DNA of 64,000 bases. Source: an uncultured Flavobacteriales bacterium. GTDB lineage: Bacteria; Bacteroidota; Bacteroidia; Flavobacteriales_D; CAJJDF01. The notes beneath the pieces are model-generated. The model did no database searches, was not told the DNA's origin, and saw only the letters and a list, made by a program, of their open reading frames with translations. Below are positions 1,477 to 64,000 of this stretch, one piece after another. Where the stretch lies: positions 133,498 through 197,497 of the forward strand of contig CAKZNB010000049.1 in the NCBI GenBank assembly GCA_937129365.1, in the 5' to 3' direction. The translations under genes and the position numbers were made by a program. Numbering within the stretch: position 1 is the first letter of the stretch; each line of letters begins with the position of its first letter.

Positions 1477-2958
1477 TTATCTTCTGAATACTCTTGAAAT
1501 AGCTGTGTTGATTATCCTATTAATCTCTAATGACATTTTTGTAAAATATAATACTACTATAAAAACGGTCACCATTATAAAAGATTTGCCAATTATATTT
1601 AAGAATGGGTTTTCTATTGTTATAAATGTTCCTAAAAATAAAACGAGTGTAATAAGGCCCCCCACAAAGAGGTGTCTAAAATTTATTGAGTTCATTTTTA
1701 ATTTGTTGTATACCACAATACTAGTTACACTGTTGTAAAGAAAAATGGAAATTGCAGTTGCAACAGCCGTTCCAACAATTCCATATTCAGTAATAAAATA
1801 CCAATTAGTTAGGATAGCTATTATTGCTAAGAAAGGTGTAAGAAAAATATTCCACTTGTAATATTTTGAATATTGAATTATTTCGAAATTTATTCCTACC
1901 GCTAAATCAAACAGTTTGGACAAACCAATAAAAAACACCACATATTTTCCTTCAACATAATTGTCCCCATTAGGAATAATGCTAAAAATGGAATCTATAT
2001 TTCCCCAAATCAAAATAAAGATTATTCCACCAAGTATCAATAAATTAATAGCAGATTTTTTAAATAAATCCTCCACTTTATGATTTTCTCCATCAGCCAG
2101 ATATTTGGATATTAATGGGATGGTTAATTGGATAACAGGTCTCTTTGGTATTTCAATAACTACTCCCATAAAAAAAGCAATGGTATAGATACCCACCTTA
2201 CCAAGACTCTCAGTTATAGATCCAATCATTAACGTGTCAATTTGTGCCACAATAACACCGCTTAAGCTTCCAAAAACTACATAAGATGAATAGATTGAAA
2301 ACCCTTTGAATTTCTTATTTTTATTGAATCCAAATTTAATTTTATAAGGATTTTGATAGAAATAATATATTGCCAGTATTATTACATTTAATATGTGTAG
2401 TGTAATATAAAATATAAGGAGTGTGTTAAAATTGATAAGCCCAGTTGTGTAAAGGATGACCAAGCCAATAAGATAAAGTCTTGAGACTACACTCTTTAAA
2501 AAATTAGATAAAATAATTTGAGTCTTAATGGTAAGGAGTGATTCAAATAAATTTAAATACACATAATGAAAAACCATACCAGGCAATAGATATATGATAT
2601 TTGCTAAATAGGGTGAGTCTTTAAAAAAGTAATCGTCAATCCACCCTTTTAACATTAAACTTGCTATGGTAAATATTATTAAAATGAAGAGAGGTAATAG
2701 TATAACAAAGGTTAGAAATTGATTTTTTTCCTTCTCATTATTTACAAAATAATGGTAATAGCGGTATACAGCGCTTCCAAAGCCCATAAGAACAAATGGA
2801 AAAATTATTAATGAAATTGCATTAAGCGTTTTAATTGTTCCAATTTCTTCTTGAGAAAGGTACTTTGTTTGGATATAGAGAATCCCAAAAGCAGCAATAA
2901 CAATTCCCAAAAAGTTTATTATGGTAACGGCTGCACTTTTATTTGTGATAACTCCCAT
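1477..2958 (-). CDS. Wzx-type oligosaccharide flippase (MOP superfamily polysaccharide biosynthesis protein)
   Basis: 493 aa, about 12-14 hydrophobic helices throughout, typical length and position in a glycan locus. Confidence 0.8.
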   Translation of the reverse strand: MGVITNKSAAVTIINFLGIVIAAFGILYIQTKYLSQEEIGTIKTLNAISLIIFPFVLMGFGSAVYRYYHYFVNNEKEKNQFLTFVILLPLFILIIFTIASLMLKGWIDDYFFKDSPYLANIIYLLPGMVFHYVYLNLFESLLTIKTQIILSNFLKSVVSRLYLIGLVILYTTGLINFNTLLIFYITLHILNVIILAIYYFYQNPYKIKFGFNKNKKFKGFSIYSSYVVFGSLSGVIVAQIDTLMIGSITESLGKVGIYTIAFFMGVVIEIPKRPVIQLTIPLISKYLADGENHKVEDLFKKSAINLLILGGIIFILIWGNIDSIFSIIPNGDNYVEGKYVVFFIGLSKLFDLAVGINFEIIQYSKYYKWNIFLTPFLAIIAILTNWYFITEYGIVGTAVATAISIFLYNSVTSIVVYNKLKMNSINFRHLFVGGLITLVLFLGTFITIENPFLNIIGKSFIMVTVFIVVLYFTKMSLEINRIINTAISRVFRR

Positions 2959-2960
2959 TC

Positions 2961-4274
2961 TTATTTTTTATATTTTTTTGCTACTGCTCCCAAGGTAGTA
3001 GTATTGAATTTATTTTTATCAATTTGAACTAAAAGGTTGGAGTAAAAAATCCTCCATTCAGGATTTAAATACTCACTGATAAAGGTGTTGTGCCAGTTAA
3101 ACACTAAAGTTCCATTCCATTTTTCAACTTCATTAATCATAGAGTTAGCTTCAATTTTTGCTTCTGACACCGAAACTCCCATATAGTTTTCGAAAGCTAA
3201 CGAACAATCCATAATAGTGAGTGGTATTTCTAAAAAATTATAGGGCGTGTCATTTTCAAAATCATATAAATAAAACGGATTACAAATTCCATTTCTGAAA
3301 CCTATTTGCTCCTGAAAGCCAAGAGAAGTGTCATATTCTAGTCCTGATTGTTCAATTATTGAAGGAGTTTTTGACATGTCCCATTGTAGGAAATGAAATC
3401 TATTTCCGAGGATTGGGTTATTAATTCTTGAACTCAATTGATTTAAATCCCCCATAAATTCTTTTTCAATATCATGAGTTCTATAGCTTCCATGCAGTCC
3501 AATTTCAGAGTTATTACTAATTATTTTTTTAATAGATGAATTTATATAATTATTCGTTAAACTATAATCTGCATTTTTAATTTCTCCAACTTTGTTATCA
3601 TTTGTTAAAAAGAAAAATGTAGACTTTACTCCATATTTACTTTCAATATCAATAATATCCTCAATGTTTTTCCATGGTTGAAAAGGGGAAATACAATGAT
3701 TAATAAATTGGGATATACTTTTTCTGATTTTTTTGTTTTGTAATGAAATTCTTATTCTATGCTTCCAAGCAGAAGTCACCTCATCTATATCATGGGATAA
3801 GCATATGGTAAAACCATGATTAAAGTCTAATTTAATAGAATAGACTTTTTCAATGGCCGTTTTTAAAATATCAAAGTAGTAATTTACTAGAGGGTAATCA
3901 ACAAAGTTTAGTTTTTTTTGAAGACTCTCATTAAATTCGAACCTATCATGTTTGTCTCTTTTTTTACAATCAATTTCTTGTTTTCCGCTAAGTAAATAGA
4001 AACTTGCAGACAATATATCGTAGTTTATAATACATTGATTATTAGAGCAATTAAGTATATCTCCGTTATCTTCATTATTAAATAAAAAGGGTATTTTTCT
4101 TTTGCTCCATTCTCTATAATATGGGCTTGAGCTTAACGAAGAGTTTGTGTTAATTATAATTTTAGCCTCAGAATTTTTATCGCCATTAAAATCTATATCC
4201 AACTCTTTAACCTTATCTAATTGATAAATAAGAGCAAAGTTCTTTAATATATAATTGAATTTATTCTGATTCAT
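2961..4274 (-). CDS. Polysaccharide deacetylase-like protein (NodB/CE4-superfamily-like)
   Basis: Track ORF is 2961..4340. I prefer the ATG at 4274 (MNQNKFNY...), which leaves a 126-bp divergent promoter region with pseB. The SHDIDEV and GLHGSY motifs resemble metal-dependent sugar deacetylases. The family call is tentative. Confidence 0.55.
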   Translation of the reverse strand: MNQNKFNYILKNFALIYQLDKVKELDIDFNGDKNSEAKIIINTNSSLSSSPYYREWSKRKIPFLFNNEDNGDILNCSNNQCIINYDILSASFYLLSGKQEIDCKKRDKHDRFEFNESLQKKLNFVDYPLVNYYFDILKTAIEKVYSIKLDFNHGFTICLSHDIDEVTSAWKHRIRISLQNKKIRKSISQFINHCISPFQPWKNIEDIIDIESKYGVKSTFFFLTNDNKVGEIKNADYSLTNNYINSSIKKIISNNSEIGLHGSYRTHDIEKEFMGDLNQLSSRINNPILGNRFHFLQWDMSKTPSIIEQSGLEYDTSLGFQEQIGFRNGICNPFYLYDFENDTPYNFLEIPLTIMDCSLAFENYMGVSVSEAKIEANSMINEVEKWNGTLVFNWHNTFISEYLNPEWRIFYSNLLVQIDKNKFNTTTLGAVAKKYKK

Positions 4275-26518: not shown

Positions 26519-26552
26519 TTATAAAAGTTGTTATTCCTGCGAAGGCAGGAAT
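26519..26552. repeat. REP-like hairpin repeat, copy 1 (TTATAAAAGTTGTTATTCCTGCGAAGGCAGGAAT)
   Basis: Perfect 8-bp hairpin ATTCCTGC-GAAG-GCAGGAAT. A near-identical copy lies at 26847..26880. Confidence 0.8.
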
Positions 26553-26846: not shown

Positions 26847-26880
26847 TTATAAAAGTTGTCATTCCTGCGAAGGCAGAAAT
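26847..26880. repeat. REP-like hairpin repeat, copy 2 (TTATAAAAGTTGTCATTCCTGCGAAGGCAGAAAT)
   Basis: Direct repeat of 26519..26552 with 2 mismatches. Lies 20 nt past the stop of the minus-strand thioesterase gene. Confidence 0.8.
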
Positions 26881-28003: not shown

Positions 28004-28004
28004 G

Positions 28005-28128
28005 GTAACGCAAAGATGGGGATTTTTTCATTAGTCGTTCACCTGTAGCCATTAAAACTCAGTCTTTTTTTTAAATTTATCTTGATATTATTGGTCCCAA
28101 AGTCTTTGAATAAGCGTCTGTTTTAGTG
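28005..28128. repeat. Degenerate attC-like palindrome (element Z) between the GNAT stop and the rsmE start
   Basis: On the + strand GTAACG-CAAAGA-TGGGGA (28005-28022) pairs imperfectly with TCCCA..TCTTTG..GTT (28095-28122). TTAGTG at 28123-28128 is complementary to CACTAA at 28664-28669. Much weaker than elements A and B. Confidence 0.3.
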
Positions 28129-28659
28129 ATGCTTATTTTTTATTATAAGTTTTTTGTCACACCAATACCAGACTACATCTTCACCTCCAGGTTCATAAGG
28201 CGCAAATTTATCAAATTCCATCCCAACTTTTTCCATAACTTTTATAGATGCTTTATTTTCCTTCATAGCAATTGCTATTATCTGTCTTAATTCGAGTTTA
28301 TCAAATCCATATGTTAAAATTGCTTGAGATGCTTCTGTTGCAAAACCCATCCCCCAATATTGAGGGGAGAATCTATAACCAAGATCAATTTCATCAAATT
28401 CAGGTAGATACGCTAAACCAGCCCAGCCAACAAAATGCATTCCATTTTTTAGAAAGGTAGCCCATCTTCCGTATCCATAATTCTCATAGTCGTTAATTCT
28501 TGTTTTTATTGCCTGTTCCATTTCTTCTAAAGATTCAACCAGAGGTTCTCCTGTGTACTTTTGTACATCAGAATTAGAATGCAACTTAAAAAGTTCCTCT
28601 TTATCATCTAAGGTGATTTTCCTTAATAATAATCTCTTTGTTTCTATCAAAATTTTCAT
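28123..28659 (-). CDS. GNAT-family N-acetyltransferase (RimJ/RimL-like, Acetyltransf_3-type)
   Basis: 178 aa. ETKRLLLRKITLDD start and QYWGMGFATEA acetyl-CoA region. Confidence 0.85.
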   Translation of the reverse strand: MKILIETKRLLLRKITLDDKEELFKLHSNSDVQKYTGEPLVESLEEMEQAIKTRINDYENYGYGRWATFLKNGMHFVGWAGLAYLPEFDEIDLGYRFSPQYWGMGFATEASQAILTYGFDKLELRQIIAIAMKENKASIKVMEKVGMEFDKFAPYEPGGEDVVWYWCDKKLIIKNKHH

Positions 28660-28665
28660 TTTTCA

Positions 28666-28857
28666 CTAACGGTTGGTATAAGAAACGTAGGGCAGGGTAA
28701 AAGTACTATCGTTTCGGTTTATTACTTAGCTAAATATAAATATTTTGCTTTTATCTTATCGATTTTAAATGCCAAATTTTATATTTGGCGGACTTTGTAA
28801 ATAAACACAGACCTTTAGGCAAGCCAAGAATGCCCTATGTTTTTTATACATTGTTAG
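28666..28857. repeat. attC-like structured palindrome, element A (192 bp)
   Basis: + strand CTAAC(28666-70)...GTTAG(28853-57). Long imperfect stem of 5 bp, a 5x3-nt internal loop, 6 bp, G-T, 4 bp, G-T, 7 bp. Conserved core hairpin GCCAAAT-N5-ATTTGGC followed by GGAC. Confidence 0.6.
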
Positions 28858-29934
28858 CTAAAGTACTTTTTTCGTTAATATTGTATATAATCTATGGTTG
28901 ATGTAATAATTTCCTGTTCCTAATTTCTGTTTTATTAGGATTCCATCTTTCGATAATCTATTCAAATAGTTTCCTGCTGTTATTCTTGATACTCCTAAAT
29001 CTCTTTCTATAAATTCAATTTTAGTGTATGGATGTTGAAATAAATTATTCAATAAATCTTGACTATAAAATTTATAATTATCTCTAATTAAGTGTTTGTA
29101 CTCAAGCATTAGAACTTGAATTTCTTTAATTAATATAATTGTTTGTTTAGCAGTTTGTTCAACTGCTTTGATGATATAAATTAACCAATTTTCCCAATTA
29201 TCTGTAATTCTAACTTCTTGTAATAATTCGTAGTATTTCACCTTATTTTGAATAATGTATCGACTCAGGTAAAGTATTGGTAAGTCTAGTAAATCTTTCA
29301 TTACAAGGTATAGTACATTAATTATTCTTCCTGTTCTTCCGTTTCCGTCATAAAATGGATGAATACTCTCAAATTGAAAGTGAATAATAGCCATTTTAAC
29401 AATTGGGTCAAAATCAGATAAATCATCATCATTGATGAATGTTTCAAGATTAGACATTAAGTTCTTAATAGTGTCATAGTCTTGAGGAGGAGTGTATACA
29501 ACTTCTCCCGTTGTTGCATTTTTTAAAGCAGTACCTGGAACTTTTCTAAATCCAGCATTGTTTTTTTCAAGCTCAGATTGAATTTGAATTATATCGTTGT
29601 TTGTTAATATATTTCTCTTGGAGATTAATGAGTAGCCAGTTTTTAATGCTGATATATAATTTTGAACCTCTTTAGCATCCAATGACTTCAATCCATCTAA
29701 GTTTAATTCAGCTTTGTAAAGATCATCGTGAGTTGTAATGATGTTTTCAATTTCAGAACTATCTTTAGCTTCCTGAAGTCCTAAAGTATTGATTAGTATA
29801 CTCTCGTTAGGAATACTTGAAACTAAACCTTTTAATTCGGCTAGTGCTCTGTGAGCTTCGTTAAGCTTTTTTAAAACACGTTTTGTTTCAATATCTTTTG
29901 TAAGAGGTAATTTTTCAAGCTTGAAATTATTCAT
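28858..29934 (-). CDS. Fic-family protein (AMPylase-type, N-terminal inhibitory helix, C-terminal winged helix)
   Basis: 358 aa. Catalytic HPFYDGNGRTGR, N-terminal SSEIEN matching the (S/T)xxxE(G/N) auto-inhibition motif, C-terminal GVSRITAGNYLNRLSKDGIL wHTH. Confidence 0.92.
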   Translation of the reverse strand: MNNFKLEKLPLTKDIETKRVLKKLNEAHRALAELKGLVSSIPNESILINTLGLQEAKDSSEIENIITTHDDLYKAELNLDGLKSLDAKEVQNYISALKTGYSLISKRNILTNNDIIQIQSELEKNNAGFRKVPGTALKNATTGEVVYTPPQDYDTIKNLMSNLETFINDDDLSDFDPIVKMAIIHFQFESIHPFYDGNGRTGRIINVLYLVMKDLLDLPILYLSRYIIQNKVKYYELLQEVRITDNWENWLIYIIKAVEQTAKQTIILIKEIQVLMLEYKHLIRDNYKFYSQDLLNNLFQHPYTKIEFIERDLGVSRITAGNYLNRLSKDGILIKQKLGTGNYYINHRLYTILTKKVL

Positions 29935-29936
29935 AA

Positions 29937-30056
29937 TGATAAGAAAATCTATTTTTCTTTACAAAGATAGTTCTTTTGATAAGAAATATTAATTTTCTTT
30001 ACATATAAAATATATGTGATAAGATTTTAAGTTAATCTTTACATTCAATTTTTCTA
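29937..30056. repeat. Three exactly phased 40-bp direct repeats (iteron/operator-like) abutting the Fic start codon
   Basis: Units are 29937-76, 29977-30016 and 30017-56. Each is TGAT-AAGAxx-N7-xxTCTT-TACA on the + strand. The inner 6-N7-6 inverted repeat is kept by paired changes in unit 3 (AAGATT/AATCTT versus AAGAAA/TTTCTT). Confidence 0.8.
29962..29969 (-). promoter_or_regulatory. Candidate -7 box TATCTTTG (TAnnTTTG) for the Fic gene, inside repeat unit 1
   Basis: Exact consensus match on the minus strand about 28 nt upstream of the Fic ATG. Confidence 0.35.
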
Positions 30057-30075
30057 GGGTGCTTCCGTATTTTAG

Positions 30076-30272
30076 CTAACGTCTCGGCTATGATTAGTAC
30101 GGGAATTAAAAGTAGTGAACTTTCGATTAAGCACTTAGCCAAAACTTTTTATTTTGTTTTAATTTTTTCATTTTAAAAGCCAAATCAAAAGATTTGGCGG
30201 ACATTATAAAAACACACTAAACTTTGGATTAAACACTAAAACCCGTATTAATTATAGCCATTGTTGTGTGTA
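30076..30272. repeat. attC-like structured palindrome, element B (~195 bp)
   Basis: + strand CTAAC(30076-80)...GTTGTGTGTA(30263-72). Same stem architecture as element A but with different stem sequences. Same core hairpin GCCAAATC-N4-GATTTGGC followed by GGAC. Confidence 0.6.
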
Positions 30273-30276
30273 GTAC

Positions 30277-31695
30277 TTAGTCTTTACCTTTAATTATTCT
30301 AACATCATCTTGATAGTTATATCTAATAGCACCTTTTTCCAGTTTCATACCTTGGTTTCCAGTTATATCATCTGTAATTGGCCCAACATTATGCAACATA
30401 AAATCGAGATGATTGTATCTTTCGTTTGCAACAAGATTTGAGAAATTTATTTCATCAGAATAAAATCTTTGATTAGAACTTGTCTTTATCTCAATAACAC
30501 CAAAGGTATCTAAACTTGTGTTTTTGAATTCATAATCGTGTTCCCAAAAATAAGTTCCACCTTTTTCCATATGAAGTTTTCCACCTGATTTGCCATCCTT
30601 TCTTTTTGGAAAGCAGATAAATTTTGTTCCTACTTTCTGAGTTTGATTTGGTTTAATACACAAAGGGAATTCTGTATCTGCGTAAAGACTTTCTATCGGA
30701 AAGAAAAATACTAATTGCTTTGAAGTTAGTACTTCTATACTTTCTATATAAACATTCTGCTTACCATCATTAATAATGCTGATTTCGATTATAGGTTCAG
30801 TTATTTTTTGTTTTTTTCTATTCAGTAGTAAATCAATTTTCTTAGGTTCTTTAAACCAATGAAATTTATTTTTGTGTTCAAAGATTTGATGTCTTAAAAT
30901 AATTTTGTCTTTATTATTTATGGGTATCTTTTCTGAGTTTTCCTCTACATTAATAAAAATCTCCTGTGTTACAGTTAAACCGTTATGGTCTTTGAACTCC
31001 TTAAGATAATTAGAAAAAGGTGGTAATTCTGGACTTAATGTATTCAACATAGCAGACAACAACATCGCAATCTCGAAATTATTTTCTTGTGAAATAGATT
31101 CATAATAAAATGAAGATTTTGCTAATTGTCTTGATTCTTGAAAGGCATAATTACGTTTTGTATGACTCCAGTATCCTTTTCCAATGACAAGTAAGACATC
31201 AATAGCTGGATGAGTATGAAATTCCGAATCATATTTTTTTATACGTTCTATTTCATTCTCTTTTGTCATATCGGATGCATAGGCAAAAAGAACTCTAATC
31301 GGTCTTTTTTGACCTTTGGAATCAAACTTTTTAAGAAGGTTAAATTTCTTAATAGTACTTTTTATTTCCGTTGCGTTTATTGTTGATTTTACTTCAAAAG
31401 CGTAGCGACAACTTTCAATGGGAAAAACTCCAACATTTGAGCTTAACATAGCTTTAGGAAGTGAATCCTCGTTATATATAATTAAATCTGTTTCTGCTGA
31501 TAAACTTCCATTGCCATCGGCAATTTTTCCATTTCCTATATTCCATTTGCGAGGAAGGTATTTTAAGAAAAAGTCACTTAGATGTTCTTCTTTAACTTTT
31601 CCTTTAAGCCCATCGTGTTCTATTGAAGAACCTAAATTAGCAGATTCTACTAAAGTATTTATGTTGTTCAATAAGACTTTTAATACAGGTGTCAT
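30277..31695 (-). CDS. Hypothetical protein with N-terminal PD-(D/E)xK nuclease-like domain (DUF6602-like) and unknown C-terminal domain
   Basis: 472 aa. D70 (ETDLIIY) ... E101-V-K103 (AFEVKS) spacing typical of the restriction-endonuclease fold. The C-terminal ~240 aa have no motif I recognise. Confidence 0.6.
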   Translation of the reverse strand: MTPVLKVLLNNINTLVESANLGSSIEHDGLKGKVKEEHLSDFFLKYLPRKWNIGNGKIADGNGSLSAETDLIIYNEDSLPKAMLSSNVGVFPIESCRYAFEVKSTINATEIKSTIKKFNLLKKFDSKGQKRPIRVLFAYASDMTKENEIERIKKYDSEFHTHPAIDVLLVIGKGYWSHTKRNYAFQESRQLAKSSFYYESISQENNFEIAMLLSAMLNTLSPELPPFSNYLKEFKDHNGLTVTQEIFINVEENSEKIPINNKDKIILRHQIFEHKNKFHWFKEPKKIDLLLNRKKQKITEPIIEISIINDGKQNVYIESIEVLTSKQLVFFFPIESLYADTEFPLCIKPNQTQKVGTKFICFPKRKDGKSGGKLHMEKGGTYFWEHDYEFKNTSLDTFGVIEIKTSSNQRFYSDEINFSNLVANERYNHLDFMLHNVGPITDDITGNQGMKLEKGAIRYNYQDDVRIIKGKD

Positions 31696-31887
31696 TATTT
31701 TTGATGTTCGTTTGGTGTATTACACACAACTTGTTTGTATGCGGAAGTTAAGAAAAATACTTTGTAATTAGCTAGTACACATGGTGTAATATATGTTTTT
31801 ATTTATTTTTTAGTACATTTGATAGGTGCTGATTAGCGCACTCAATCGGATGTAAACGTCACCTTTATGAAAATAGAAAATTATTTA

Positions 31888-59824: not shown

Positions 59825-62800
59825 TTGAAAAAAACTATTAAGCATATAATTTTTCTGTTATTTGGAATTCTTTTGTTTTTTAATAACAATAGTTTTTCAA
59901 CCCATTTAATGGGTTCAACACTTTCTTATTCATGTATTGGGCCAAATCAATACACTGTAACTTTTAAAGCTTATAGAGATTGTGGAGGAATAGCAATGCC
60001 GTCTTCATTTTTAATCTCATACAGTGGTTGCGGAAACACTGGTAGTTTAACTGCAACACAAATAAGTAGTGCTGATATTACACCAGTTTGCCCAAGCAAA
60101 TCTAGTAATTGTGGCGGAGGAACTGGACCAATAGGAGTAGAAGAATACATTTTTCAAGGAACAGTAACTGTTCCTGCTGGTTGTTCAAATATTTTATTTT
60201 CTGTTTCATCTTGTTGCCGAAATGGAAGTGTCACAAATATTACAAGTCCAAGTACAAATGGGTTTTACACAAGCTCATTACTTAACAACACTATTAGTCC
60301 TTGCAATAGTTCTCCAATATTTGCCTCAGCACCAACACTTTTTGCCTGTGTTAATCAACCAGTTTCTTTTCAACAATTAGCAACCGACCCTGATGGAGAT
60401 GTTTTGGTATATTCTCTGACCAACTGTAGGCAAACTACAGGAACTAGTGTAACTTATGGGGGCGGTTTTAGTGGAGCCTCTCCATTAACAACTCCTGTAA
60501 CTATAAATCCAAGTACAGGAGATTTATCTTTCACACCTAATTCGATTCAAATCGCAACAGTTTGTGTACTTGTAGAAGAATTTAGAGGTGCGGTTAAAAT
60601 AGGAGAAATAGTCCGAGATATGCAGATTGTAGTTCGAAACTGTTTCAACGCTTTACCTTCACTATCTGGAATAAATGGTGCATCTGGTGTCTATAGTACC
60701 AATATTTGTGAAGGAGCGCCACTTTGTTTTAATGTAAATGCTTCAGATACTAATTCTGCAGATAATCTAACAATGACTTTTTCTGGAATTATACCTGGGT
60801 CAACATTTACGCAATCTGGAACTGGTAATAATAAAACAGGAACTTTTTGTTGGACTCCACCAATAGGTTCTGTTGGTTCATATGTGTTTTCTGTTTTAGT
60901 TAATGATGATGCTTGTCCTATCATTGGGCAAAACTCAAAAACTTATACAGTTAATGTAGTTGCAAATTCCAATCCACCTATTGTTGCTAGTTCTGATGTA
61001 ACATTATGCGAAGGTAATTCTACAACACTTACAGCCACAAATGTAGCTCCAACAATAACCTGGTCGCCCTCATTGGGGCTCTCAACAACATCTGGAACTT
61101 CAACAACTGCAACTCCACTTTCAACTACAACTTATACAGCAACTGCAATTTATGCCGATGGTTGTCGATCCTCGGATGATGTAGTTTTAACTATTAATCA
61201 GGCTCCTACCACATTAATTACTCCCACATCTGCTAATGTCTGCCCAGGAGGTAATTTTACATTAACAGGCACAACAAATAGTACTGGAATGAGTTTCAGC
61301 TGGACTAGGTTAAACCCTTTTGCTATAGGGTTAGGGAGTGGAACAGTTTCTGGAACTTCTTCTACAATAGTTGTAACTGTCCCAACTACTCCTGGCACAT
61401 ATAATTTTAGATTAAGAGTCACAAATCCTATCTCAGGCTGTGTTTCTGAAGTTACCGTTCCACTAACAGTAGGTTCCGCTCCTCCATTAGGTAGTTGTGT
61501 CAATATATATGTTTCTCCTTCAGGATCATCTTCAGCAGCTGGTTCACAAGCAAACCCCACAAATTTGCCTGAAGCTCTTACTAGGAGTGCTTGTCAAAAT
61601 GCAGTTATAAAAATGGCTATGGGAACTTATAATTTCAGTAACCCTATCAATATTCCAAGCTTTGTAACTATTGAAGGAGGATTTAATCCTACTACTTGGG
61701 TAAAAACGAGTCAAGCTGGTGCCACTACAATAAATAGAAATACATTAAACCCTGAAGGAGTAACTAACGCTCGGAGGCTAGTTATGTTTTATGGGAATAG
61801 TGTTTCTGGATTTAGATTTCAAGACATTACAATAACTACCTCTGCTGCAAATCAAAGTGGCATGTCCACTTACGGAGTGCATTTAACATCTTGCTCTAAT
61901 TATGATTTTGTAAGAACGCAAATATTACCAGGAAATGCTTCTGCTGGTCAAGCAGGAGGAACTGGCCCAACAGGTGGATTTTCTGGTGGTACCGGACAAC
62001 ATGGGTCCAACTTCTCTACTTCTACTTCGGCTCAGGTAAATGGTGGAGCAGGAGGAGCTGGATGTAATAGTTCGGGCTCAGGAGGGAATGTATGTACCGC
62101 TCCAGGAATAAACAGGGGTTGTAATGGTTTTTCAGGGGGAGGGTCAGCCCTTTATTGGCGAGGAAGTGGTGGTGGTGGTGGTGGTGGTGGTGGTAACGAA
62201 GATAGAGATGGAGGAAGAGGAGGTTATGGAGGATCAATTGCTGCTGGAGGTGGGTTTGCAGGTAGGTCTCAAAATAATCAACCAGGTCCTGGACCAGGAT
62301 GTAGAAGTTTTGGAAACTGGTTTGGGAATGAAACCGGATGCATAAGTTCTGTATCATCAACTAGCACTGAATCTGGAAGATGTGGTAGAACTGGTATAAA
62401 TGGACAAAATGGGACTATAGGAGTTCTTGGTAGTGTAGGTACTTATGGAGTATTTTATACACCAGGTGGACAAGGTGGACAAGGAGGAAGAGGTCAAGGT
62501 GGTCAAGGCGGGTCAGGAGGAGGAGGAGGTGCAGGAGCTGATGGGTTTTTATGTGCTGATGGTACAGGTGCAGGAGGAGGAGGAGGAGGAGGAGGAGGCT
62601 GTGGAGGATATGGTGGTCTTGGTGGTCGTGGTGGTGGTGGTAGTTTTGGATTGTATTTAGTTTCTAATGGGACAAACGGGATCGTTTCACAAAGTTATAT
62701 TAATGCAGGAACAGCAGGTGCTGGTGGAAATGGAGGAACTGGTAGAATAGGTACAAATGGAGGCCTTGGAGGGAACGGAGGAAATGGAGGTACAAGTGGA

Positions 62801-64000
62801 GGTTATGGAGGAGATGGAGGAAGAGGAGGAAATGGAGGAAGAGGGGGGAATGGGGGGAATGGAAGAGCTGGTGTTTCAATTGATGTTTATAGGGTAAGTG
62901 GATCTTTATTAACAACTCAGGTTACTACTTTTAATCTTGCTGGTCAATCTACTATCAATGTTTCTAATGTTAATTGTACCCAGACTAATGTAAATTACTC
63001 AACAGCCTCTCCAAATTCATGGGACTTTGATAGGGTTACTAATTTTGCAACACCAGCAACATCTGGAGCAACAACCTCTGCAAATACACAATATTCTCAA
63101 ATAGCTAGGTATACAGTTTCTAGTGGTGCTGATATTTATGAAGGCTTTCATAATATTTCTTTTACTGGTTCGGTTGCTCCAGAAATATCAACAAGTGCAG
63201 ATTCTATAGGTGTTGATACATTTCAACTTTGTCAAGGAGATTATGCAACTTTTGCAAGTGTTTCTTCTGGATTAACTTATATCTGGAATTTTAATGGGGC
63301 AATTGCAAATCCTGGATCTGGAATTCAAGTAGTTCCTTCCACACAATTTAATACTCCAGGATTTTATACCATCACACTAAGAACAACAAACGATTGTTGT
63401 GGGCTTTCTCCTACCAAAACAATTTATCTTTATGTAGATGTATTACCAACTGTATTTGCATCTGGAGCTGGATCTATTTGTGAAGGGGATAATAGAACTT
63501 TAAGTTTATTTGGTTTAACTGCTAGTGATAGTGTTGTTTGGTCTCCCATTACAAGTATTGTTTCTTCAACATCAACATCAACATCAAAAACTATTACGGT
63601 TAGTCCGTCAACAACTACAACCTATACTGCATCTATTTATACAAAAATAACTACAAATGGCGTAACAAGATTAAGTTGCCCTATTAGTCGACCTCTTACA
63701 ATAACAGTGAGTCCTAATCCTATTCTTAGCATGTCATCAACACAAGTTATTTGTAATAATGATGGTACTTCAACAGCAACTATAAGTTCAGGAGGAGGTT
63801 TATATAATTTTGTATGGTCAAATGGAGGCACCACATTTAATACAACTACATCAACCATTACAGGTTTAGGTGTAGGAAAATATGTTGTAACTGCGACAAA
63901 TACTATTACAGGTTGCTCTGTTACAGATTCTGTTGATGTTCTTCCCTCAGCTTTAGCTCCTACTATAGTTCTTCAAAGTTCTACACCTGCAACTTGTGGT
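59825..64000 (+). CDS. Giant cell-surface adhesin-like protein, 3' end beyond window (at least 1392 codons); not in the supplied ORF track
   Basis: Frame 2 is open from the stop at 59816-18 to the window end. TTG start gives signal peptide LKKTIKHIIFLLFGILLFFNNNSFS. N-terminal HLMGSTLSY..YTVTFKAYRDCGG motif typical of Bacteroidota type-B-sorted giants. Ig-like repeats, beta-helix-like YVSPSGS..GTYNF, glycine-rich tract. Confidence 0.85.
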   Translation, partial: MKKTIKHIIFLLFGILLFFNNNSFSTHLMGSTLSYSCIGPNQYTVTFKAYRDCGGIAMPSSFLISYSGCGNTGSLTATQISSADITPVCPSKSSNCGGGTGPIGVEEYIFQGTVTVPAGCSNILFSVSSCCRNGSVTNITSPSTNGFYTSSLLNNTISPCNSSPIFASAPTLFACVNQPVSFQQLATDPDGDVLVYSLTNCRQTTGTSVTYGGGFSGASPLTTPVTINPSTGDLSFTPNSIQIATVCVLVEEFRGAVKIGEIVRDMQIVVRNCFNALPSLSGINGASGVYSTNICEGAPLCFNVNASDTNSADNLTMTFSGIIPGSTFTQSGTGNNKTGTFCWTPPIGSVGSYVFSVLVNDDACPIIGQNSKTYTVNVVANSNPPIVASSDVTLCEGNSTTLTATNVAPTITWSPSLGLSTTSGTSTTATPLSTTTYTATAIYADGCRSSDDVVLTINQAPTTLITPTSANVCPGGNFTLTGTTNSTGMSFSWTRLNPFAIGLGSGTVSGTSSTIVVTVPTTPGTYNFRLRVTNPISGCVSEVTVPLTVGSAPPLGSCVNIYVSPSGSSSAAGSQANPTNLPEALTRSACQNAVIKMAMGTYNFSNPINIPSFVTIEGGFNPTTWVKTSQAGATTINRNTLNPEGVTNARRLVMFYGNSVSGFRFQDITITTSAANQSGMSTYGVHLTSCSNYDFVRTQILPGNASAGQAGGTGPTGGFSGGTGQHGSNFSTSTSAQVNGGAGGAGCNSSGSGGNVCTAPGINRGCNGFSGGGSALYWRGSGGGGGGGGGNEDRDGGRGGYGGSIAAGGGFAGRSQNNQPGPGPGCRSFGNWFGNETGCISSVSSTSTESGRCGRTGINGQNGTIGVLGSVGTYGVFYTPGGQGGQGGRGQGGQGGSGGGGGAGADGFLCADGTGAGGGGGGGGGCGGYGGLGGRGGGGSFGLYLVSNGTNGIVSQSYINAGTAGAGGNGGTGRIGTNGGLGGNGGNGGTSGGYGGDGGRGGNGGRGGNGGNGRAGVSIDVYRVSGSLLTTQVTTFNLAGQSTINVSNVNCTQTNVNYSTASPNSWDFDRVTNFATPATSGATTSANTQYSQIARYTVSSGADIYEGFHNISFTGSVAPEISTSADSIGVDTFQLCQGDYATFASVSSGLTYIWNFNGAIANPGSGIQVVPSTQFNTPGFYTITLRTTNDCCGLSPTKTIYLYVDVLPTVFASGAGSICEGDNRTLSLFGLTASDSVVWSPITSIVSSTSTSTSKTITVSPSTTTTYTASIYTKITTNGVTRLSCPISRPLTITVSPNPILSMSSTQVICNNDGTSTATISSGGGLYNFVWSNGGTTFNTTTSTITGLGVGKYVVTATNTITGCSVTDSVDVLPSALAPTIVLQSSTPATCG
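62168..62191 (+). repeat. In-frame trinucleotide microsatellite (GGT)8 encoding Gly8
   Basis: Read directly; in frame with the 59825 ORF. Confidence 0.95.
62573..62596 (+). repeat. In-frame trinucleotide microsatellite (GGA)8 (plus GGC) encoding Gly9
   Basis: Read directly; in frame with the 59825 ORF. Confidence 0.95.

Follow-up and report, generated by a model that had tools for sequence, protein, structure and literature searches.

Recombination at the attC sites of integrons uses the folded bottom strand. Integrons are defined by the IntI-specific domain of their integrases, and the Bacteroidota are regarded as nearly free of them. The IntI-specific insertion is considered a defining and necessary part of integron integrases (PMC4889954) and has been treated as a requirement for attC recombination (PMC9668308), and surveys with IntegronFinder detected almost no integrons in Bacteroidetes (PMC9024848). 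Here we analysed two related elements, A and B, in a stretch of 64,000 nucleotides (nt) from an uncultured Flavobacteriales bacterium (contig CAKZNB010000049.1), which we call the window and number from its first letter. We propose, with a probability of roughly 85%, that A and B serve as attC-like sites of recombination in an integron-like cassette system of marine Flavobacteriales. A description of cassette arrays or integrons in the chromosomes of Flavobacteriaceae was not found in the full-text literature, of which the accessible part is incomplete.

A and B each lie between minus-strand open reading frames (ORFs), are 1.4 kb apart and can be aligned over about 190 nt; nhmmer identified these two as the sole copies of the element in the window. 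The genes are on the minus strand, and the + strand of the window is the 'bottom' strand relative to them. The genes named below, encoding a DUF6602 nuclease, a SoFic-type Fic protein and a GNAT acetyltransferase, are described further on. The parts of the two elements are as follows.

28668 to 28855, + strand: core of element A from AAC to GTT, 188 nt; putative attC-like site closing the SoFic cassette

30078 to 30265, + strand: core of element B from AAC to GTT, 188 nt, long 'AB' subtype; putative attC-like site closing the DUF6602 nuclease cassette

30086 to 30103, + strand: 5' arm of the outer (L-box) helix of B, GGCTATGATTAGTACGGG, pairing with 30242-30259

30242 to 30259, + strand: 3' arm of the outer (L-box) helix of B, CCCGTATTAATTATAGCC, both T residues being in G·T wobbles

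30138 to 30149, + strand: 5' strand of the inner helix of B, GCCAAAACTTTT, pairing with 30187-30198

30187 to 30198, + strand: 3' strand of the inner helix of B, AAAAGATTTGGC, the last 7 nt of which alternatively pair with 30179-30185

30263 to 30272, - strand: R'' box of B, TACACACAAC, read on the gene strand, complementing the start of its own cassette at 31730-31721

30071 to 30080, - strand: R' box of B, GTTAGCTAAA, read on the gene strand, the bases past the G being the first bases of the SoFic cassette

28853 to 28862, - strand: R'' box of A, TTTAGCTAAC, including the TAG stop codon of the SoFic ORF

28661 to 28670, - strand: R' box of A, GTTAGTGAAA, with the ATG of the GNAT ORF beginning 1 nt downstream

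The outer helix of B (30086-30103 with 30242-30259) comprises 18 bp including two G·T wobbles, and outside it a 5 x 3-nt internal loop is followed by AAC (30078-30080) facing GTT (30263-30265). The layout of A is identical, with GTATAAGAAACGTAGGGCA pairing with TGCCCTATGTTTTTTATAC and the wobbles at the equivalent positions, and the outer helix measures 18-19 bp across the two elements. Folding with DNA parameters gave z = -2.95 for B and -3.31 for A relative to shuffled sequences. The helix pairing and the sequence given in a preliminary description of this DNA were both reproduced. The same description called the stem sequences of A and B entirely different; the compensatory divergence is confirmed by eight pairs changed on both sides and none broken, whereas 'entirely' is too strong, about 10 of the 18 positions being common to both. 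The positions of the outer helix that are invariant family-wide are T-A, A-T, both G·T pairs and T-A. An 18-nt direct repeat reported inside B is present, with its second copy at 30220-30237 rather than 30217-30234. The small hairpin GCCAAAT/ATTTGGC (30179-30185/30192-30198), which had been described as the core hairpin, holds as an alternative pairing that competes with the longer inner helix GCCAAAACTTTT/AAAAGATTTGGC, and the latter covaries better.

A and B turned out to be members of a family with homologues in many marine Flavobacteriaceae loci. With the 3' end of a short element as query, a scan of a single genome for each species yielded at least 120 stretches, and among the matches listed all titles were marine Flavobacteriaceae or unclassified Bacteroidota. 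Searches of those 120 loci with profile hidden Markov models (HMMs) identified 469 short ('T') and 50 long ('AB') elements with median cores of 125 and 188 nt, respectively. They reach densities of up to 13 per 8 kb, and within any locus all elements are on one strand, with short and long types mixed together.

We aligned 41 distinct long-type elements (alignment A2) and called the helices with RNAalifold, which recovered two of them; 500 shuffles and pairings with slid partners served as controls. Over the whole alignment, 96.6% of the cells pair, compared with 73.1% after shuffling and 33-53% with slid partners, and cells changed on both sides number 242 versus 81 in the shuffles, a value that none of the 500 shuffles reached. 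In the outer helix (A2 columns 10-26/185-200), 97.9% of the cells pair and 11 of the 16 pairs have changed on both sides, as exemplified by a pair with the composition AU18/CG17/GC6. The inner helix, in which GCCAAAaCTTTT pairs with AAAAGaTTTGGC, is formed in 94.9% of the cells, and 8 of its 11 pairs have changed on both sides. The L''/L' helix is thus kept in structure and not in sequence. The inference from structure-preserving divergence between A and B to a functional folded nucleic acid is therefore supported by covariation far above the shuffles over 41 copies, and it can be extended in one respect, as the supposedly conserved core contains a second covarying helix.

The structure is also strand-asymmetric. 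Short-type elements follow the same helix design in an alignment of 200 copies. The long copies retain the two G·T wobbles in 39/41 and 41/41 cases, and the short copies in 181/200 and 199/200. At the positions of these wobbles, the gene strand has A·C mismatches. The bottom strand folds more stably than the top strand in 392 of 402 short and 34 of 41 long elements. A conserved bulge of the kind formed by an extrahelical base was found in neither the 41-copy nor the 200-copy alignment; in its place there are the two near-invariant wobbles and an asymmetric spacer of 5-6 x 3 nt. Because the wobbles are conserved at fixed positions, they point to selection on one strand, and since the well-folding strand is antisense to the cassette genes, a folded DNA is favoured over an mRNA structure. 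We propose that the two wobbles and the asymmetric spacer make only the bottom strand a good hairpin.

These data bear on the idea that the elements are structured RNAs, either cis-regulatory or terminator elements of the cassette mRNAs or antisense small RNAs, with the arrays being merely gene-linked modules. The gene strand does contain the hairpin GCCAAAT-N6-ATTTGGC followed by TTTTAAAA, the corresponding A-run of the + strand is conserved, and the pairing of this small hairpin is kept in 93.7% of the cells, although with weaker support than that of the inner helix; a terminator role of the small hairpin might exist as a secondary function. However, the window contains no Rfam family at gathering thresholds, with just chance-level matches up to an E-value of 10, and a terminator scan of 28600-30320 returned no site, the small hairpin having 3 G-C pairs among 7 and a tail of four T residues. 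A scan for tRNA and tmRNA genes was likewise negative. The wobbles would be A·C mismatches in a sense RNA, the good folder is antisense to the genes, and an RNA function leaves unexplained the complementarity between consecutive elements, the attI-like site beside a recombinase and the presence or absence of cassettes, all of which are presented below. We consider the RNA explanation highly improbable.

In gene orientation, each element begins with a 7-nt variable box and AAC (R''), a 3-nt spacer and an arm of 16-19 bp (L''), and ends, after a variable centre, with the L' arm, a spacer of 5-6 nt and GTT with another 7-nt box (R'). In the long A/B subtype, the variable centre includes the second covarying helix. 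Short elements retain AAC in 405/412 cases and GTT in 410/412, and AAC is present in 46/46 long elements. The consensus reads AAAAC-N7-AAC ... C-GTT-R-N5-(A/C)-ATT, and RYYYAAC occurs in 31 and GTTRRRY in 33 of 447 elements. An additional motif, TTAAGCAC, was observed on the bottom strand only and at fixed positions; about 54% of short elements carry one copy and long elements up to two, those of B being located at 30127-30134 and 30229-30236. It might be a candidate binding site for the extra domain of the recombinase described below or for an accessory factor.

The variable boxes obey a rule that connects neighbouring elements. In 274 of 334 consecutive pairs (82%), the 6-7 nt past one GTT and the 6-7 nt preceding the next AAC are reverse complements of each other, with the complementarity extending over 7 nt in 186 pairs, over 6 nt in 88 and beyond 7 nt in a single pair. 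Matches of at least 6 nt are found in 1.5% of random pairs and in 2.5% of comparisons between the two ends of the same element. In the window, both boundaries agree at 10/10 positions: the R'' box of B, TACACACAAC, matches GTTGTGTGTA at 31730-31721, and the R'' box of A, TTTAGCTAAC, matches the R' box of B, GTTAGCTAAA. This junction rule is the signature of integron cassettes and places the exchange at GTT.

Two further explanations have to be weighed against it. The elements might be passive repeats, comparable to repetitive extragenic palindromes or bacterial interspersed mosaic elements (REP/BIME), with cassette turnover arising solely from homologous recombination after DNA uptake. Element centres are indeed conserved enough for homologous exchange, and two haplotype breakpoints, detailed below, fall inside elements and not at GTT. 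Homologous exchange, however, can neither make nor keep variable 7-nt boxes complementary between the start and the end of a cassette with a sharp limit at 7 nt, and it explains neither the compensatory evolution of the helices nor a dedicated recombinase and an attI-like site at the heads of arrays, so that we regard it as just as improbable as the RNA explanation. Alternatively, the outer arms could be the transposase-bound terminal inverted repeats of miniature inverted-repeat transposable elements (MITEs), for which the long inverted arms, the many dispersed copies and assemblies breaking at these copies would speak. The arms, however, vary freely in sequence yet stay complementary, the opposite of repeats recognised by a transposase; there are no target-site duplications, the flanks complementing the neighbouring element instead; within arrays, the elements between the ORFs all point strictly the same way; and no transposase is linked to them. 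The MITE explanation is the least probable of all those considered. The junction rule, the covariation and the terminator scan led us to reject the MITE, terminator and REP readings.

Returning to attC-like sites, the DNA between consecutive elements has the properties of gene cassettes. The 275 cassettes that follow the junction rule have a median interior of 666 bp, about 91% of which is filled by an ORF; in 216 cassettes, the longest ORF runs in the same direction as the array. The start codon is located about 24 nt past GTT and the stop codon about 14 nt ahead of AAC. Nine of ten sampled cassette ORFs belong to no Pfam family. Cassettes common to different species amount to six pairs at 70% identity or more, which are too few for tracing movement.

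The family is wider than the two modelled types. We noticed a type of about 55 nt and another with the arm GGCTATAATTCAGCGTGG (L104 at about 3620-3680; also upstream of the first detected element in L111 and L048), and these extra subtypes extend the size range. The short-type pattern was not found in viral contigs. Among plasmids, the short type had no match, and the long type matched two Cytophagales megaplasmids. One of these, plasmid p1 of Flammeovirga kamogawensis (L212; NZ_CP076130.1, 628400-628602), carries an element 89% identical to B among small co-oriented ORFs, beside a different gene and in a different class of Bacteroidota. The family thus extends to Cytophagales, and this copy implies either that cassettes have spread horizontally or that the type of element is unusually conserved. 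Many element matches are no more than about 100 nt from the end of a contig or are on contigs that are short and of high coverage (L009-L128 and L129-L139), and arrays appear to break short-read assemblies routinely.

At eight loci, a tyrosine recombinase of about 385 residues is encoded upstream of the first element and co-oriented with the array. An attI-like site with the pattern ...ATAWAAC-N2-3-GTT follows 50-90 nt past its stop codon at 8/8 loci and is also present in L209, and the next 6-7 nt complement the R'' box of the first element. The same attI-like motif is found downstream of metagenomic homologues of the recombinase. A reciprocal search starting from the recombinase led to the complete genome of Polaribacter sp. 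ALD11 (CP025119), where the next 10 kb contain at least 14 elements along with 12 small ORFs; here the attI-like box matches at 10/10 positions and the junction rule holds for most consecutive pairs. The recombinase of P. huanghezhanensis is followed by a short array of two elements. Recombinase contigs often stop 50-250 nt past the gene.

The recombinase matches the Pfam families PF00589 (Phage_integrase) and PF13495 (Phage_int_SAM_4) and reaches 202-241 bits with the NCBIfam model NF040815 'tyrosine recombinase/integron integrase' (cut-off 220). The closest solved structures are archaeal XerA (4a8e, 5hxy), followed by VchIntIA (2a3v), with which the alignment splits into two parts, as residues 182-246 of IntI face about 22 residues and about 43 are missing. 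The first ~95 residues have no Pfam match. An AlphaFold model from a single sequence was unusable (predicted local distance difference test, pLDDT, of 36), and one from 20 sequences was confident for residues 1-178 only. In the latter, the N-terminal domain is modelled as beta-beta-alpha-beta-beta-alpha-beta, and the structural matches obtained for it were weak and limited to HARP and XPB-DRD, folds whose binding to DNA depends on its shape. We take this predicted likeness as a lead rather than a finding.

With the recombinase in view, it can be asked whether the elements are simply canonical attC sites, recombined by a standard IntI encoded elsewhere, the window then being an ordinary attC-site cluster without an integron-integrase (CALIN). 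The AAC/GTT core, the R and L boxes, the junction rule and the co-oriented promoterless cassettes are classic integron features, and the associated recombinase scores 200-210 bits with the integron-integrase model TIGR02249. That score, however, falls short of the cut-off of 265 bits, and the alignment with VchIntIA breaks exactly at the IntI-specific insertion. RYYYAAC and GTTRRRY are as rare as stated above (31/447 and 33/447), conserved extrahelical bases are absent from both the 41-copy and the 200-copy alignment, core lengths are 125-188 nt, and Bacteroidetes are essentially without integrons in IntegronFinder surveys (PMC9024848). Canonical attC sites are therefore a very unlikely explanation.

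The window itself contains a block of three cassettes (28004-31887), inserted between a gene encoding 174 amino acids (aa) and rsmE and surrounded by the core genes recR, rsmE, trmD and rplS. In gene orientation, the order is a half-site, the nuclease cassette with B, the SoFic cassette with A and the GNAT cassette.

31721 to 31730, - strand: upstream half-site ...GCATACAAACAA|GTTGTGTGTA, start of the nuclease cassette with GTT at 31730; weak HMM match to model positions 126-154

30277 to 31695, - strand: ORF of cassette 1, 472 aa, DUF6602, with an N-terminal PD-(D/E)xK, NucC-like nuclease domain (PADLOC PD_DExK 2e-31, NucC 3e-16)

28858 to 29934, - strand: ORF of cassette 2, 358 aa, Fic, matching the SoFic anti-phage family over the full length (PADLOC SoFic 5.6e-119)

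28123 to 28659, - strand: ORF of probable cassette 3, a 178-aa GNAT acetyltransferase, missing from the empty site of relatives

The 174-aa gene, which adjoins the block on its upstream side, is conserved among uncultured marine Flavobacteriales. In three relatives (L213, L217 and L218), it is followed directly by rsmE and there are no elements, and in three others (L214-216) it is followed by an insert of about 365 nt with one degenerate element. Co-occurring strains L007 and L008 carry an identical DUF6602 gene and then other cassettes. On one metagenome contig, DUF6602 is followed by a Fic gene with a different element of about 130 nt, and on another by the two-gene defence system GAPS4 and further elements of about 130 nt. 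These empty, degenerate and varied forms in relatives indicate that the block in the window is an insertion at a repeatedly changing site. Cassettes are thus present, absent or replaced at this locus, and A and B bound mobile cassettes, a point that goes beyond the preliminary description, as does the finding that the best-folding strand is antisense to the genes. The comparison with attC models suggested in that description is borne out by the arrays, the junction rule, the recombinase with its attI-like site and the empty site in relatives.

Several observations weigh against our interpretation. The upstream boundary of the block resembles the 3' end of an element only, and a 5' arm was sought there and not found. 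No recognisable element follows the GNAT cassette; the 3' end of the GNAT ORF, CATCACTAAAAC, resembles the R'' box expected for a cassette beginning with GTTAGTGAAA, and GNAT may be a cassette whose attC-like site was lost. The Fic cassettes of the window and L007 share 98% identity as far as about 12 nt past AAC and then continue into different types of elements (28841-28862 of the window compared with 12824-12981 of L007), so that the L007 breakpoint is at the 5' boundary of the element and not at GTT. The copy of B in L008, next to GAPS4 (2917-3121, compared with 30071-30272 of the window), has an identity of about 98% in its gene-proximal half but of about 75% in the remainder, with the switch point within the conserved core of B, which suggests homologous recombination between long-type elements. 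Breakpoints away from GTT point to additional processes, namely homologous exchange inside elements or events on the opposite strand. Concerning the recombinase, it has no IntI-specific insertion near patch III, and site recognition would accordingly have to work differently. Among the 24 loci that have 2 kb or more of upstream flank, only 6 showed it; at several loci without it, there are upstream element subtypes that the HMMs missed. Metagenome contigs with the recombinase gave no element matches, most contigs of the close homologues ending within about 250 nt of the gene, and walking onward from the attI-like motif in L135, L137 and L129 was unsuccessful. Finally, tblastn detected no homologue of the recombinase in the 64-kb window or in the related contigs L001-L008.

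Other repeats were noticed in the window. Between B and the start codon of SoFic, 29937-30016 contains two tandem 40-nt repeats (TGATAAGAAA...TTTTCTTTACA), each with an AAGAAA/TTTCTT inverted motif, and they could be an operator or promoter of the SoFic cassette. A 34-nt repeat at 26519-26552 and 26847-26880, with copies 94% identical, contains the hairpin ATTCCTGC-GAA-GGCAGGAAT and is a family distinct from A/B. A long run of GGN/GGT-type repeats with a 9-nt period at 61900-62900 probably encodes a glycine-rich repetitive protein.

Putting these data together, we picture the following mechanism. The + ('bottom') strand of the window would fold into a hairpin once it becomes single-stranded in the cell. 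The Xer/IntI-related tyrosine recombinase from the heads of arrays would then cut and exchange strands, presumably at the AAC/GTT triplet. Units of an ORF and an element would be excised as circles, and these circles might reinsert at the attI-like site or else use secondary GTT sites, for example that in the window.

We further favour, if narrowly and with considerable reservation, the wider view that these arrays represent an unrecognised lineage of integrons in marine Flavobacteriales and some Cytophagales. Its integrase would have no IntI domain but an N-terminal one with which it may recognise the shape of the DNA it binds; G·T wobbles would set the choice of strand; each array would hold dozens of mostly orphan cassettes; and cassettes would also be located far from the recombinase, for instance at the site in the window, with SoFic, PD-(D/E)xK nuclease and GAPS4 genes swapped between co-occurring strains. 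If this is true, integron-type gene capture extends to abundant marine Flavobacteria, with another integrase architecture and another way of encoding strand choice, and folded DNA can be recombined in other ways than through the IntI insertion. Such a lineage would bring to light a large pool of cassette genes, among them anti-phage defence genes, that current integron finders have probably missed, explain the assembly breaks of Flavobacteriaceae genomes at array loci, and offer a new pair of a structure-specific recombinase and its site for engineering.

The system works like an integron yet lacks three defining features, namely the IntI-specific domain, the RYYYAAC/GTTRRRY consensus and extrahelical bases. 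Compared with the attC sites of sedentary chromosomal integrons, such as the Vibrio cholerae repeats (VCRs), the elements are likewise imperfect palindromes kept in structure with an AAC...GTT core, in which the R' box of each site derives from the next cassette. They also share arrays of compact, co-oriented, mostly orphan ORFs, a bottom strand that folds best, site families that are homogeneous within a lineage and defence genes among the cassettes. They differ from VCR-type sites in having a 10-bp R box without the RYYYAAC/GTTRRRY consensus, spacers of 3 and 5-6 nt, and strand asymmetry from two conserved G·T wobbles instead of extrahelical bases. Cores of 125-188 nt, the second covarying helix in the long subtype, the strand-specific TTAAGCAC motif, and hosts among Flavobacteriales and Cytophagales, where integrons are reported to be nearly absent, are further differences. 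The recombinase resembles IntI (VchIntIA, 2a3v) and archaeal XerA (4a8e, 5hxy) in combining a SAM_4-type core-binding domain with a complete catalytic domain, and differs from IntI in the missing insertion around patch III, the extra N-terminal domain of about 95 aa and the co-orientation of its gene with the cassettes. The block in the window, three genes without a neighbouring recombinase between core genes that are adjacent in relatives, is similar to CALINs and to secondary-site insertion at attG (bioRxiv 10.1101/2022.09.11.507474), although its left boundary is a half-site resembling the 3' end of an element and its last cassette is element-less. As in the Xer-dependent dif/pdif modules, a recombinase of the Xer family is tied to small mobile gene modules; whereas pdif sites are double-stranded, 28 bp long and alternating in orientation, the elements described here are hairpin-forming, 125-190 nt long and directly oriented, with variable complementary boxes.

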